The notes below the pieces were generated by a model. The model ran no database searches. It was given only the letters and a program-made list of their open reading frames with translations, and was not told the DNA's origin. Made by a program: the position numbers and the translations under genes. Below are positions 33,627 to 39,183 of a stretch of 64,000 nt of DNA, piece by piece; position 1 is the first letter of the stretch; every line of letters begins with the position of its first letter. This DNA comes from Elusimicrobiota bacterium (GTDB taxonomy: Bacteria; Elusimicrobiota; Elusimicrobia; UBA1565), in the NCBI GenBank assembly GCA_043827405.1, contig JBDRPD010000060.1:1-64000 (forward strand), read 5' to 3'.

Positions 33627-36263
33627 ATGCCTTCCGTCGAGGACAAGCGCGGGGCCGGCAAAGGGGGCCCCACCCCGGTCATGAAGCAGTACCATGCCCT
33701 CAAGGCGGCATATCCGCATGCCGTCATGTTTTTCCGCCTCGGCGATTTCTATGAGCTTTTCGAAGAAGATGCCAAAATCGCGGCTCCCGTCATGGGAGTG
33801 GTGCTGACCCAGCGCGCCGGACTGCCGATGTGCGGCGTCCCCTATCACTCCTACACCAATTATCTGCGCAAACTGCTCGCGGCGGGCTTCAAGGTCGCGA
33901 TGGCTGAGCAGATGGAGGACCCGGCGAAAACCAAGGGTCTGGTCAAGCGGGCCGTTACGCGCGTTGTGACCCCGGGGACTTTGGTCGAAGACGAACTGCT
34001 CCAGGGATCCGCGACCAATTACCTGGTAGCCCTCGAGATAGACACCATCGGCTGGGGCATCGCCTGCGCCGAGGTCTCCACCGGCGAATTCTGGGCGACC
34101 CAGGCGCTCGACGACCACAACCATCTGCGGCTGTATTCCCTGCTGGCCAAGATCGATCCGGCCGAGCTTATTGCCCCGCGACGCGCGGTGGAGGAACTGC
34201 GGCTGAAGAATCTGCTCAAGTCTGGAACCGCGATCTCGGAATGGAAGCGGACGTCCTCGGAAACGCAGGTCCCGGAGCACTGGGACAGCCGGTCCATCTG
34301 GCGCAACCGCCAGCTCGCGCTCAAAGCCGCGCTGACCGCGCGCAGCTACATCGAGAGCACCCAGTCGCACCTCAAGGAAGTGCTTAAGCCAAGCTACCGG
34401 GAAGCGCGGCCGGAGATGCAGCTCAATGAGGCCGCCATTCGCACCCTCGAGCTCGTCGATTCGCAGACCGGCGGCCGCAAGCTGACACTGTGGGGCATCC
34501 TGGACCGCACGCTCACGCCGATGGGCAGCCGCCGGCTCAAACAGTGGATACTGCATCCGTCCACGGAGCTGCCCGAAATCGAGCGCCGCCTGCACTGCGT
34601 CGAAGAGCTGGCCGACAAGACCGACACCCGCGACAGCCTGGGCGGCCTGCTGGATGAAATCTCGGACCTGGAACGCGTAATCAACCGTATGGCAACGCGC
34701 TCGGCGGCACCGCGCGACCTGGCCGCCCTGCGCGACTCCCTGCTGCAGATCCACTCGCTGGAAAAGTGGCTGAAAGACGGTCAGTTCTTCTCCGGGCTCG
34801 CCGCAGTGACGGATGCGCTCAAGGAAGTAGCGGATCCTATTCGCAAAACACAATCCTTGCTCGATCGCTCCCTCGTCGACAACCCGCCCGCCAAGCTGTC
34901 CGATGGCGGCCTCTTCGCCGCCGGCTACGATCAGCGGCTGGATGAACTCCGCGCGATCAAAACGGACAGCCGGAGCGTGCTCAAGGAGCTCGAGACGCGG
35001 GAGCGGAAAGAAAGCGGCATCGCGTCGCTGCGCGTCGGATACAATTCCGTTTTCGGCTACTATATCGAAGTTACCAAGACCCATTCAGCCAAGGTCCCCG
35101 CCCGCTACACGCGCAAGCAGACGCTGACCAACGCCGAGCGCTATATCACCCCCGAGCTCAAGGAGCTCGAAACGCGCGTCCTCGGAGCCGAAGACAAGTT
35201 CCTGCGCCTCGAAGCGGAACTATTTGAGGACTTGCGCTCCAAGATTCTCGAGCATAACGGCGAGATCCGCCGCTTCGCGGAGATCGTTTCCGAGCTCGAT
35301 GTGATGCGCTCGCTCGCGGATGTCGCCGTCCACAACAACTACGTTAAGCCCGTGGTGGACCTTTCACACTGCTTTGAGATCGACGAGGGGCGCCATCCCG
35401 TCGTGGAGACCGTGCTGCCGGCCGGCACATTCGTCTCCAACGATCTGTCGGTCGACAGCGACGACTCACAGACCCTGATCCTCACCGGCCCCAACATGGG
35501 CGGGAAATCGGTCTTTCTCCGGCAGAACGCGCTGATAGCGATCATGGCGCAGATGGGAAGTTTTGTCCCCGCCAAGTCCGCGCGCATCGGCGTTGTCGAC
35601 AAGGTCCTTACCCGCATAGGCTCCCAGGATCAGCTGACCCGCGGCGAATCCACCTTTATGGTGGAGATGAAGGAGACCTCGCATATCCTCCAGGCGGCGA
35701 CCCTGCGCAGCCTGATCCTGCTCGACGAGGTCGGACGCGGCACTTCCACCTACGACGGCATCTCCATCGCCTGGGCGGTTATCGAGCACCTCAACCGGCT
35801 CGGCCTCGGCGGCGAGCGGGCCGAAAAAGCCGCGGGCCGCGGACCACGGACCCTGTTCGCCACCCATTACTTCGAGCTTACCGAACTTGCGGATCTCCTC
35901 AACGGCGTCAAGAACATCAGCGTCGAGGCGCGGGAATGGACCAACGCCGCCGGACGCACCGAGGTAATCTTTCTGCATAAGATATCGAAGGGCCCGGCCG
36001 ATCGGTCTTTCGGCATCCATGTGGCCGAGCTCGCGGGACTGCCGGAAGGGTGCCTGCGGCGCGCCCAGGAAATTCTGCACGGCCTGGAGAACGAATCCCG
36101 CACCGCATCACCAACCTCCGCGGCCAAGCCCGAATCACCGCAGCAGGACCTGCCGTTTTTCGACGAGCATCCGGTCCTGCATGATCTGCGGCTGCTGGAC
36201 GCCGACGCCCTCACCCCCATCGAAGCGCTTAAAAAGCTCTCCGGTTGGAAAAAGCAGCTTTAA
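33627..36263 (+). CDS. mutS: DNA mismatch repair protein MutS
   Basis: TPVMKQY, GDFYELF, TGPNMGGKS, STFMVEM, DEVGRG, ATHY. Confidence 0.97.
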   Translation: MPSVEDKRGAGKGGPTPVMKQYHALKAAYPHAVMFFRLGDFYELFEEDAKIAAPVMGVVLTQRAGLPMCGVPYHSYTNYLRKLLAAGFKVAMAEQMEDPAKTKGLVKRAVTRVVTPGTLVEDELLQGSATNYLVALEIDTIGWGIACAEVSTGEFWATQALDDHNHLRLYSLLAKIDPAELIAPRRAVEELRLKNLLKSGTAISEWKRTSSETQVPEHWDSRSIWRNRQLALKAALTARSYIESTQSHLKEVLKPSYREARPEMQLNEAAIRTLELVDSQTGGRKLTLWGILDRTLTPMGSRRLKQWILHPSTELPEIERRLHCVEELADKTDTRDSLGGLLDEISDLERVINRMATRSAAPRDLAALRDSLLQIHSLEKWLKDGQFFSGLAAVTDALKEVADPIRKTQSLLDRSLVDNPPAKLSDGGLFAAGYDQRLDELRAIKTDSRSVLKELETRERKESGIASLRVGYNSVFGYYIEVTKTHSAKVPARYTRKQTLTNAERYITPELKELETRVLGAEDKFLRLEAELFEDLRSKILEHNGEIRRFAEIVSELDVMRSLADVAVHNNYVKPVVDLSHCFEIDEGRHPVVETVLPAGTFVSNDLSVDSDDSQTLILTGPNMGGKSVFLRQNALIAIMAQMGSFVPAKSARIGVVDKVLTRIGSQDQLTRGESTFMVEMKETSHILQAATLRSLILLDEVGRGTSTYDGISIAWAVIEHLNRLGLGGERAEKAAGRGPRTLFATHYFELTELADLLNGVKNISVEAREWTNAAGRTEVIFLHKISKGPADRSFGIHVAELAGLPEGCLRRAQEILHGLENESRTASPTSAAKPESPQQDLPFFDEHPVLHDLRLLDADALTPIEALKKLSGWKKQL

Positions 36264-38041
36264 TGCCGTCGCGGCTCCAGCCCCTGCCCGAAGACGTGGC
36301 CAGCCGCATTGCGGCCGGCGAAGTAATAGAACGGCCGGCCTCGGTTCTCAAAGAGCTTGTTGAAAACTCGCTCGACGCCGGCGCCAGCAAGATCGAAATC
36401 GAAATCAAGGGCGCGGGGTGCAAGCTCATCCGCGTCGCCGACGACGGCGACGGCGTGCCGCCGGAGGACTGCGCCCGGGCATTCGAGCGCCATACCACCA
36501 GCAAGATCCGCGCGCTCCAGGATCTGGAGAAGCTCTCCACCTTCGGCTTCCGCGGCGAAGCGCTGTTCTCCATCGCCGCGGTTTCCAAGACCACGCTCGC
36601 CAGCCGCGCCAAAGGAGAGCGCCGGGCCTGGCGCGTCGAATTCCGCGGCGGCAGGCTCCATAAAGAGCACGAGGCTCCCCCGGCCGCCGGCACGGCGATC
36701 GAGGTCCGCGACTTATTTTTCAACACTCCCGCCCGCGCCAAGTTTTTAAAATCCGACGCCACTGAGCGCAGCCACCTGGCACGCGTCGTTGAGGAGGCGG
36801 CGCTGGCCAATCCCGCCGTCGCCTTCACCTACTGCGCGGAAGGCAAGATAAAACTGCGCTGCGCGGCGCAAAAAAACGACGGCCGGAAGGCGCAGCAGCG
36901 CCGCGTCGCGGAAGTGCTCGGAGAGGAGTATGGCCGAGAGCTGCTGTGCGCCGAAGGCGGCGCCGGAGGCCTCACCGTCCGCGGGCTTTTTTCGCCGCCG
37001 GAGACCCTGCACGCCACCCGCGGCTTCCAGTACGTATTCGTCAATCGCCGGCCGGTGACCAACCGCACCGTCCAGCAGGCGCTGTACCGCGCCTATGAGC
37101 CGTTCCGCGGCCGGAATCGTCACCCGGCGGCGGTCTTGTTCATCGACGTCCCCTCCGCCGAGCTCGACGTCAACGTCCACCCGACAAAGCGGGAAGTCCG
37201 CTTCCGGCCCGCCGCCGCCGTCTACCAGGCCGTCACGCAGACGCTGTCGAAAGCGCTGCTGGAAGCGAGATCGATCCCGACCATCCAGACGGCCGCGGAA
37301 AATATCCGGTCAGCTTATCACGCCGCCGGCGAAGCCGGACGCTCGCGCGCCGAACGGCCGGTCGCCGAACAATCCTCATTCGTCCTGGAGGCACCCGCCG
37401 GCTACCCCGCCGCCAGGCCCCTGGGCCGGGAGCGCGTTTGGTACTCCGATGACATGCGCTACCTCGGCCAGATCGAACGCACCTATCTGCTCTTTGAGAC
37501 GGGAGGCGGACTGCTCATCATGGACCAGCACGCGGCCCAGGAGAAGGTGCTTTTCGAGCGCTACATCGCCGAGGTGGATTCCGGCAAGCTGCACGTGCAG
37601 GAACTTATGCTCCCGCTGGCCCTGGATCTCCCGGCCTCCGGCATCGAGAAAATCCTCGCCAAGAAGAAGCGCCTGCTCCGCGCCGGCTTCACGGTAGAGG
37701 CGCTGGGCAAGACGACGCTGCACATCACCAGCACGCCGGCGCTCTTCGCCAAAGCGCACGACATCAAGGAGATGGTCCAGCGGCTCCTCGACAGCCTGCT
37801 TTCGCCCTCCTCGGCGGCGGCCGACGTGCGCTACGACGCCACGGCGACCATCGCCTGCAAAGCGGCGGTCAAAGCGCACGACGCCCTGTCGGAACGAGAA
37901 GCACGCGCGCTGGTCAAGGACCTGCGCGCATGCGCGGACGGGACCTGCTGTCCGCACGGCCGCCCGACCATGCTCCACCTCGACCGCTTCGAACTGGCGC
38001 GTCGTTTCGGCCGCTCCGGCGCGCCGCCGCTGGACGCCTAG
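36263..38041 (+). CDS. mutL: DNA mismatch repair endonuclease MutL
   Basis: IAAGEVIERP, GFRGEAL, DVNVHPTK, DQHAAQEK, ACKAA, CPHGRP. Confidence 0.97.
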   Translation: MPSRLQPLPEDVASRIAAGEVIERPASVLKELVENSLDAGASKIEIEIKGAGCKLIRVADDGDGVPPEDCARAFERHTTSKIRALQDLEKLSTFGFRGEALFSIAAVSKTTLASRAKGERRAWRVEFRGGRLHKEHEAPPAAGTAIEVRDLFFNTPARAKFLKSDATERSHLARVVEEAALANPAVAFTYCAEGKIKLRCAAQKNDGRKAQQRRVAEVLGEEYGRELLCAEGGAGGLTVRGLFSPPETLHATRGFQYVFVNRRPVTNRTVQQALYRAYEPFRGRNRHPAAVLFIDVPSAELDVNVHPTKREVRFRPAAAVYQAVTQTLSKALLEARSIPTIQTAAENIRSAYHAAGEAGRSRAERPVAEQSSFVLEAPAGYPAARPLGRERVWYSDDMRYLGQIERTYLLFETGGGLLIMDQHAAQEKVLFERYIAEVDSGKLHVQELMLPLALDLPASGIEKILAKKKRLLRAGFTVEALGKTTLHITSTPALFAKAHDIKEMVQRLLDSLLSPSSAAADVRYDATATIACKAAVKAHDALSEREARALVKDLRACADGTCCPHGRPTMLHLDRFELARRFGRSGAPPLDA

Positions 38042-38092
38042 CTTTCTCCCGCCGCGACGGACAAGCGGAAAATTTTTTGTAAAAAATAGGTC

Positions 38093-38120
38093 TTGACGTC
38101 CGGGGTTTTGGGGCTATACT
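38093..38120 (+). promoter_or_regulatory. Sigma70-type promoter with no downstream ORF
   Basis: TTGACG-N16-TATACT with an AT-rich UP-like tract at 38069-38088. Confidence 0.7.
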
Positions 38121-38125
38121 AAGAG

Positions 38126-38226
38126 TACCGCCGAGTAGGTGCCTGCAGTAAACATTCGGCGGTGGACTTGAGGGCGGGACAACGGTCGATATAAAACGAC
38201 GCCTGTTGTCACGCCCTCAACTTTTT
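38126..38226 (+). ncRNA. Candidate small RNA A (~100 nt, two hairpins)
   Basis: Promoter; stem 38127-38136/38154-38163; long stem 38168-38220; then CTTTTT; no ORF. Confidence 0.6.
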
Positions 38227-38236
38227 GCGGCAGAAA

Positions 38237-38713
38237 TTACGGGCCGAAGAAGAAGCCGGCGACCGCGCCGAGCACGCCGCCGATAGCAGCGCCTACCGGT
38301 CCGCCGAGAAGAAAGCCCAGACCGGCCCCGGCCAGAGCGCCGCCGGCCGCCCACCATAATCTCTTACCGCTCTTCTGCGTCTTGAGCTTATTATCCTTGG
38401 TCAGCGGATTGGGCGGTTCCTTAATGTTGCCCTTGTCGGGATCCCCGATAAAGAGGTCCGCCGTTGGGGTCTCCTGCGTACCCTTCACGGGCACAGATAC
38501 CAGCGGCGGCGACACCAAGGTACTGCCCTTGAGCCCCGCGGTATCCCAGCCTTCTCCTGACCGGCCACGAGCCTGGCTGTCGTCGGCCGCACGGGCTCCA
38601 TACCAGCTTTGGTCGGCGATACGCTGCAGATCGCTGCGCAGATTCGCCGTGGAGGCATGTCCCCATACAGCCGCTACGATAAGAATGAGCGCCGCGTGTT
38701 TCAACGCTTTCAT
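38237..38713 (-). CDS. Secreted/membrane protein with C-terminal glycine zipper
   Basis: Signal peptide; GGALAGAGLGFLLGGPVGAAIGGVLGAVAGFFFGP. Confidence 0.75.
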   Translation of the reverse strand: MKALKHAALILIVAAVWGHASTANLRSDLQRIADQSWYGARAADDSQARGRSGEGWDTAGLKGSTLVSPPLVSVPVKGTQETPTADLFIGDPDKGNIKEPPNPLTKDNKLKTQKSGKRLWWAAGGALAGAGLGFLLGGPVGAAIGGVLGAVAGFFFGP

Positions 38714-38835
38714 TACAAAAATTATACCGGGAGACCACCGAATGGATGGGGGACCATGGACCTAAAAAACCGGCGTAATCCGGCCTATGCGCAAAGGGCC
38801 GGAGGTCCCGCGCAGAAACATCTATTTTTTAAGGG

Positions 38836-38880
38836 AAAATTAAGAGGGCACCAGAGCTTTCCTCTTTAGCTCTCGTGCCC
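38836..38880 (-). terminator. Terminator of candidate RNA B
   Basis: Minus strand GGGCAC-g-AGAGCT-N9-AGCTCT-g-GTGCCC-TCTTAATTTT. Confidence 0.65.
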
Positions 38881-38975
38881 CCAGTACGGCGAACGACCGC
38901 GACGTACGATGAACAGTCACCGACGGGTACAAACCTCCCGCCGGGCCCTCGGCGGGTACGTCGAACGACAACGAA

Positions 38976-39116
38976 ACGAACGGCCACGCACGGCCACAAC
39001 CCGGCAAAGGCCACAAACGACCACGACCTGGCAACGGCCACGAACGGCCACAACCACGACCCGGCAACGACCACGAACGGCCACGACCCGGCAACAACCA
39101 CGAACAGCCACGACCC
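38976..39116. repeat. About five tandem 27-33 bp repeats built from 10-nt subunits
   Basis: GGCAA anchors at 39003, 39030, 39063, 39090; consensus ggcaacggccacgaacggccacgaccc. Confidence 0.9.
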
Positions 39117-39155
39117 ACGACGGAGACGACGAAGAACACGACGACCTACGGTGTT

Positions 39156-39183
39156 AGTATAAGCCGGTAACAGGATATGTCAA
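39156..39183 (-). promoter_or_regulatory. Near-consensus sigma70 promoter facing the repeat region
   Basis: Minus strand TTGACA (39183-39178)-N16-TATACT (39161-39156). Confidence 0.75.

Follow-up and report, generated by a model that had tools for sequence, protein, structure and literature searches.

Does the stretch between mutL and the gene that converges on it encode a small RNA of its own, and if so, what would that RNA do? The question arises in the window, that is, the whole stretch of 64,000 nucleotides of an Elusimicrobiota bacterium that was analyzed, where a first-pass annotation made from the sequence alone had proposed an independent sRNA of about 100 nt with two hairpins. The genome to which the window belongs (G000) measures 4.3 Mb and is 98% complete, and we refer to the candidate sRNA as RNA-A. 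The features of the locus are as follows.

36245..38041, plus strand: mutL, the neighbor upstream of RNA-A
38088..38120, plus strand: sigma70-type promoter with an RGGYC extension (-35 TTGACG at 38093, -10 TATACT at 38115-38120)
38124..38226, plus strand: RNA-A, about 100 nt, its start probably within 38124-38127
38127..38163, plus strand: hairpin 1 (strands 38127-38136/38154-38163, 17-nt loop), which varies among relatives
38128..38143, plus strand: 5' seed of 16 nt, the exact complement of G000:C24:35743-35758 (hairpin behind rsmH-ORF X)
38168..38220, plus strand: hairpin 2 (outer stem, 1x4 internal loop, 4-bp inner stem, AUA-led loop)
38221..38226, plus strand: U-tract CTTTTT, the likely 3' end; homologs are also U-rich at the tail
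38237..38713, minus strand: convergent gene encoding 158 aa, whose N-terminus, judged from the sequence, resembles a signal peptide and whose C-terminal part is a glycine zipper

All the elements from which the annotation had argued are present. Behind an AT-rich tract, the promoter TTGACG-N16-TATACT (38093-38120) agrees with the consensus at 10 of 12 positions, in a region of 1.5 kb where 2 promoter-like sites were observed against 0.2 expected, and it is followed by both hairpins, the second with its inner GTCG/CGAC stem, and by CTTTTT. In hairpin 1 a UUCGGCGG strand is the pairing partner of the seed's first half, and the internal loop of hairpin 2 sets a G opposite GCCW. None of 200 shuffles folded as well as RNA-A (z = -4.59); since the opposite strand folds comparably (z = -4.63), folding alone gives no strand, and the assignment to the plus strand is based on the promoter, which is conserved and stands at a fixed distance. 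We infer that RNA-A is transcribed from it. On the plus strand, hairpin 2 was not among the calls of a simple scan for terminators. The region had also been described as free of ORFs, and none of at least 60 aa lies between the end of mutL (38041) and that of the glycine-zipper gene (38237), whose stop codon is 10 nt away from the U-tract. The RGGYC that abuts the -35 box (38088-38098) is a possible regulator site, and so are the RGGYC-like pentamers seen by eye at ~21-nt spacing upstream of the glycine-zipper gene (38714-38830).

A second copy of RNA-A was identified in G000 on contig C25, with its own promoter and in another gene context, convergent to an hcp gene; this copy carries, at G000:C25:61480-61495 (minus strand), an SD octamer that is perfectly complementary to the 16S tail and is not followed by a start codon. 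Homologs with a promoter are present in 16 of the 17 family genomes, and none was found in G004, which is 84% complete. The 17 RNA-A copies each fold with z between -2.0 and -7.8. Wherever a family genome has a clear ortholog of the glycine-zipper gene (15 genomes), a promoter and a structured RNA face its 3' end, one of these RNAs ~165 nt from it behind inserted sequence; the G008 copy is located elsewhere, without this neighbor. G006 and G015 keep the seed and have no hairpin 2, and G007 has no 5' domain. DNA matches in G018:C20 and G014:C32 were set aside as chance or as promoter only. RNA-A is thus a gene family and not a terminator, and the proposal of an independent sRNA is supported by the second promoter-bearing copy, by the family homologs and by the strong covariation described below.

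As checks, the annotation had named an Rfam scan and a homolog search with covariation analysis, both of which were carried out. Rfam 15 gave no match at the gathering threshold in the window, and relaxed thresholds yielded a chance miRNA match only (E 2.3); on 7 + 10 related loci it returned one flanking tRNA and otherwise chance matches, and no family for the RNA or for the hairpin array considered below. Several known classes were rejected one after another. A riboswitch or 5' leader, which the annotation had already discounted, does not fit, as it would need a same-strand gene downstream and the next gene is convergent at both G000 copies. RNA-A forms two separate hairpins and not the long rod with a central bubble of 6S RNA, for which (RF00013) no match was found in G000. 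A Y RNA was rejected because no TROVE domain (Ro60/Rsr) was found in G000, and SRP RNA because RF00169 had no match in G000 among the 150 of 368 candidates scored and because, where full Ffh or FtsY was looked for, PF00448 turned up in fragments of 35 aa and no more; G000 may have lost the SRP pathway. In the same genome tmRNA, RNase P RNA, a KhpA/B-type KH protein and RNase III are present, and Hfq, CsrA, ProQ and Ro60 were not found.

The material of two of four RNA runs contributed one contig of 211 nt spanning 38157-38367, across hairpin 2 and the stop codon of the glycine-zipper gene; it is unstranded, has a depth of 2.6 and 3 differences, and may be DNA or the neighboring mRNA. Otherwise only short, unlike pieces matched, and the uncovered parts are uninformative. 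The same neighborhood holds a second promoter-driven, ORF-poor RNA candidate.

38830..39183, minus strand: RNA-B, between queE and the glycine-zipper gene

RNA-B consists of G/U-rich repeats of variable length, and its overall fold is no better than that of shuffles (z -1.0). It contains a conserved hairpin (38937-38956) in which 9 nt are complementary to the dcw loop treated below, and a terminal hairpin (38844-38882) with a GAGGA loop. Of 15 family loci, 6 gave RNA-B under a strict pattern, which failed on copies that the eye can make out, among them that of G000.

Judged by comparison of the sequences, the most conserved part of RNA-A is hairpin 2, which recurs across the order on RNAs with quite different 5' parts. 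We built a covariance model on 4 sequences and then widened it to a 31-sequence alignment, in which pairing holds for 94% of the cells and double changes occur at 22 of 25 pairs, values that none of the shuffles or slid controls approached and that are overstated insofar as the alignment was fitted to the model and the sequences are related by kinship. Two C-G pairs around the 1x4 internal loop are invariant in all 31 sequences. A model restricted to hairpin 2 matched in 71 of the 101 genomes of the order (E <= 0.05, nearly all far below 1e-7) and in none of 144 genomes outside it; a sample of 150 from the phylum gave 5 matches, all within the order. Matches of the first model in G019 and G006:C40 were dropped as located in coding sequence. 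In the 40 matches read out, a promoter was recognized by pattern in 37, and RGGYC precedes the -35 box in 36 of these 37 promoters of the RNA family vs 5 of 55 strong G000 promoters. When the 40 loci were oriented, mutL lay within 1.5 kb upstream in 14. The promoter-driven RNAs that end in hairpin 2 range from 60 nt, which is hairpin 2 alone, to ~330 nt, and the 5' domain is therefore exchangeable. Hairpin 2 probably marks the transcription end and would in addition serve as a handle for a protein. One variant deserves separate mention: at loci of genus g17 (L004, L346 and others), a conserved RNA of ~250 nt shares both the promoter and the 3' hairpin. It is in many cases convergent with queE, has CGCCGAG inside a stem and gave no Rfam match.

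What the 5' part could recognize is indicated by the seed. The 16-mer at 38128-38143 has exactly one other exact copy in G000, antisense to the mraZ-rsmH-ftsL-ftsI transcript, where G000:C24:35743-35758 forms the loop and the 5' stem strand of a hairpin 3' of rsmH-ORF X. The annotation had singled out the 17-nt loop of hairpin 1 as the pairing element; the likely element is the 5' stem strand together with the first bases of this loop. A 13-nt pattern on the 16-mer core had matches in 16 of 16 family relatives, several of them due to chance in coding DNA, and most of the family loci read out were a dcw junction or RNA-A. Set against the hairpin of its own genome, RNA-A offers 12-20 contiguous paired nt in 10 of 16 copies, a count that includes G003 with one G-U, leaves out G015, where no junction was recovered, and draws on kin genomes that are not independent; the match is shorter than 12 nt in the other six (G000 copy 2, G001, G002, G007, G011, and G016), so that the long match was lost in five genomes. 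It reaches 20 nt in G010 along a local stem variant, and in G012 both the hairpin stem and RNA-A are altered with the pairing kept, which is the only compensatory change seen. Among the RNAs scored outside the family, the match is mostly at most 8 nt (one RNA has 10) or absent. An inverted duplication, and thus a shared origin, could be the source of part of the match. In G000 hairpin 1 sequesters half of the seed, leaving a net predicted ddG of -3.2 kcal/mol, and the second copy has -1.7 kcal/mol; the other seed-bearing homologs are predicted at -5.5 to -21 kcal/mol, and the seed is open in those of G010 and G014. An altered anti-SD as the source of the motif was rejected, the 16S tail being the usual CACCUCC.

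Hairpins like this partner, often in arrays, extend well beyond the family. We recovered 69 rsmH 3' regions from 98 genomes with a match, and hairpins with the loop (A/U)CUCGGCG are found in 58 of these 69 junctions, 125 distinct hairpins with variable stems, occurring 1-8 per junction, often as arrays, 3' of ORF X. Their stems contain 45 G-U against 15 A-C and 28 other mismatches; the structure is therefore that of the mRNA strand. The loop includes a YUNR motif (CUCG), known from the recognition loops of antisense RNAs, whose pairing often begins on such a scaffold (PMC3834814). The array occurs throughout the order and is most amplified where RNA-A has no long seed; since it persists unchanged in genomes whose RNA-A lost the seed, it is the more basic of the two partners. 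At the G012 rsmH junction (L106), repeated inserts flank a single loop hairpin, which is still kept.

The small ORF that separates rsmH from the array is the following.

G000:C24:35774-35920, minus strand (also L045:2272-2424): ORF X, 49 aa, between rsmH and the hairpin array

ORF X, with its terminal YVWRRVFLK-like motif, follows rsmH in 65 of the 69 junctions, and the first array hairpin usually starts ~7-10 nt after its stop codon. It is conserved across the order. Searches returned one close homolog, no Pfam match at E 0.1 and no Atlas match, and outside the order only weak matches (E 0.005 or worse), several with stops. ORF X is a candidate RNA-binding protein or leader peptide.

A second RNA is complementary to the same hairpin. 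On C13 of G000, the 5' leader of a gene for a secreted FlgD-Ig protein is complementary to the array loop and the other stem strand, with a predicted ddG of -16.2 kcal/mol. The complementarity amounts to 14-18 nt in 12 of 12 family orthologs (the G015 leader was scored against the G000 hairpin), and two f3 orthologs keep a 7-8-nt core; none of 16 orthologs in family f2 showed its own promoter and leader by pattern, and these are apparently operon-internal genes. In G007 and G013 the leader has lost the motif at one end but acquired pairing at the opposite end, and this shift of register favors pairing over a fixed protein site. RNA-A and the leader share 12 nt of the dcw hairpin and, since both cover these same nucleotides, would compete for it.

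The evidence for a broad regulon of the array loop is suggestive only and comes from motif counts. A promoter followed by CGCCGA gave 151 matches vs 52 for the reverse complement in the 101 genomes, and CGCCGAG occurs 10 times in the 1425 G000 leaders vs 3 for the reverse complement, where similar hexamers have a general sense bias of ~1.5; reading out 40 leaders gave a mixed set, and a looser pattern was too noisy. CGCCGAG is also seen in leaders L255-L260 (genus g17) and in L276 and L278, where it overlaps the SD region. Their genes we take, from the sequence, to be cold-shock-like and lexA-like, respectively; these leaders are possible further targets of the array.

These observations can be joined in a single account, to which we assign an even chance: RNA-A would be a sponge, that is, a decoy target, for a hairpin-array RNA resembling the cuckoo/CcsR RNAs. 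RNA-A would be a stand-alone modular sRNA whose 5' end imitates an mRNA target. The array at the end of the mraZ-rsmH-ORF X unit would be released from the transcript as a regulatory RNA of the cuckoo/CcsR kind, with the leader of the secreted FlgD-Ig protein as its clearest mRNA target. RNA-A would pair with the conserved ACUCGGCG loops of the array, contact starting between loop and single strand, and by covering the leader's 12-nt site on the hairpin it would titrate the array RNA; pairing in vivo, the direction of control and its effect are what we infer here. A wider version is doubtful in our estimation. According to it, an order-wide, Hfq-independent circuit would have the array RNA signal dcw transcription to mRNAs of envelope and secreted proteins, modular RNAs bound by a protein at hairpin 2 as their 3' handle, with exchangeable 5' domains of 0-280 nt, would act on the array and on other RNAs, and some self-locked seeds would be opened by strand displacement.

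A serious rival to the sponge reading holds that the main function lies in hairpin 2, that the RNAs are protein-binding decoys or scaffolds, and that the seed is lineage-specific and weak or vestigial in G000. The retention of hairpin 2 in 71 of 101 genomes, its invariant C-G pairs and 1x4 loop, which a terminator does not need, the 60-nt RNAs that are hairpin 2 alone, and the sequestration or loss of the seed in several genomes all agree with it. Nevertheless, it leaves unexplained the 12-20 nt of complementarity in 10 of 16 copies, the change in G012 and the retention of the seed without hairpin 2 in G006 and G015, and the partner proteins looked for (Hfq, CsrA, ProQ, and Ro60) were not found. 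We therefore consider it rather unlikely as the main function, yet compatible with a sponge role.

The direction of control could also be the reverse, with RNA-A regulating the dcw transcript through the stability of the mraZ-rsmH-ORF X mRNA or through read-through into ftsL-ftsI. The strong promoter of RNA-A with the seed at the 5' end, the YUNR loop on the mRNA side and the presence of RNase III would suit this arrangement. It is made distinctly unlikely by three points. First, the terminator-like hairpin behind the array, where present, stays folded when the seed-bound stretch is forced open, for which reason attenuation of ftsL by RNA-A was rejected. Second, the order-wide array is most amplified where RNA-A has no long seed. 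Third, the leader of the FlgD-Ig mRNA bears the same complement as RNA-A.

A cis-antisense role against the 3' UTR of the glycine-zipper gene, in the manner of type I toxin-antitoxin pairs like bsrG/SR4, would account for the convergent arrangement in 15 of 15 family genomes where this gene has a clear ortholog and for the 211-nt contig that crosses the stop codon and hairpin 2, which has no strand and may be DNA. In type I toxin-antitoxin systems, however, the toxin is short and hydrophobic and the linkage obligatory, whereas here the protein has 158 aa and a signal-peptide-like start, unlike the short toxins. The copies on C25 of G000 and in G008, as well as all the f2 and f3 RNAs examined, have no such neighbor, and the conserved seed and internal loop are not needed for cis-antisense action. 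We find the cis-antisense role, and with it RNA-A as a type I antitoxin, very improbable. A still smaller chance is given to the shared motif being a DNA operator of a transcription factor placed behind several promoters and repeated before ftsL. The motif does follow -10 boxes at a distance of 4-15 nt and recurs before ftsL, but within the arrays it always occupies the loop, on a stem that varies yet stays paired and whose wobbles are strand-biased, and the G007 and G013 leaders change register with complementarity retained. Hardly any credit is left to the hairpins being mere terminators of mutL and the convergent gene, which the U-tract behind hairpin 2 and the location between converging genes might suggest, given the conserved promoter between mutL and the hairpins, the upstream gene that points away in many relatives, and a conservation of sequence and loop beyond what a terminator needs.

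If the sponge reading is true, an sRNA and its sponge would link the expression of cell-division genes to that of a secreted protein. If the order-wide circuit exists, it would constitute a new class of regulatory RNAs made of a handle and a guide, possibly with ORF X as the protein partner. Apart from function, the analysis adds two RNA motifs that had not been described, together with a small ORF that had not been annotated, inside one of the most conserved bacterial operons. The lineage belongs to a little-studied bacterial group, and neither Hfq nor ProQ nor CsrA was found in it. Comparative sequence alone would here suffice to read an RNA-RNA interaction in trans, through a compensatory change and a shift of register. 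The three RNAs are short enough for tests of pairing and competition in vitro and in a laboratory reporter strain, with no need to culture the organism.

It is important to place these elements among known systems. Our search of the full-text literature found no description of the RNA-A family or of the array, and supplementary motif lists could hold them. The mraW RNA motif (RF01746), a hairpin upstream of mraW, is like the dcw array a conserved RNA element associated with the mraW/rsmH operon, but the array differs in its repetition and in its place downstream of rsmH, and RF01746 had no match in G000 among the 150 of 517 candidates scored. An SR4-type convergent antitoxin RNA lies tail-to-tail with a gene whose protein has a hydrophobic end (PMC3834814); RNA-A lies likewise beside such a gene, but its partner has 158 aa, the two are not obligatorily linked, and it is to a different locus that the conserved seed points. 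The 6C RNA of Actinobacteria (PMC5014011) is like RNA-A in its ~100 nt and its two hairpins, and 6C RNAs pair through their loops without RNA chaperones in high-GC bacteria, as the title of a further paper has it (PMC6486639); RNA-A has no C-rich loops and no Rfam match.

The dcw array is closest to the cuckoo RNAs, or CcsR1-4, of Alphaproteobacteria, which are adjacent hairpins directly behind the gene of a small protein, CcaF1 (PMC4615179, PMC8034643). Both systems consist of adjacent hairpins with variable stems and one loop motif, with a small ORF upstream. They differ in the loop, which is the anti-SD CCUCCUCCC in cuckoo/CcsR and (A/U)CUCGGCG in the array; in the upstream protein, DUF1127 in the former, while ORF X has no Pfam match and G000 no Hfq; and in location, the 1-8 hairpins of the array lying, unlike cuckoo/CcsR, inside the mraZ-rsmH-ftsL cluster. 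The nearest parallel to RNA-A is SprY of Staphylococcus aureus, an independently transcribed sRNA that binds the target-recognition stem-loop of RNAIII and relieves its mRNA targets (PMC8501977). The likeness is that of an sRNA complementary to the target loop of a multi-hairpin regulator, overlapping the mRNA site. The two are not related in sequence, the putative regulator of RNA-A lies inside the dcw operon and its binding is predicted, and RNA-A, unlike SprY as described there, is chromosomal and carries an order-wide 3' module. RNA-A is a real new sRNA family, one that works like known base-pairing or sponge RNAs and stands outside any described family.
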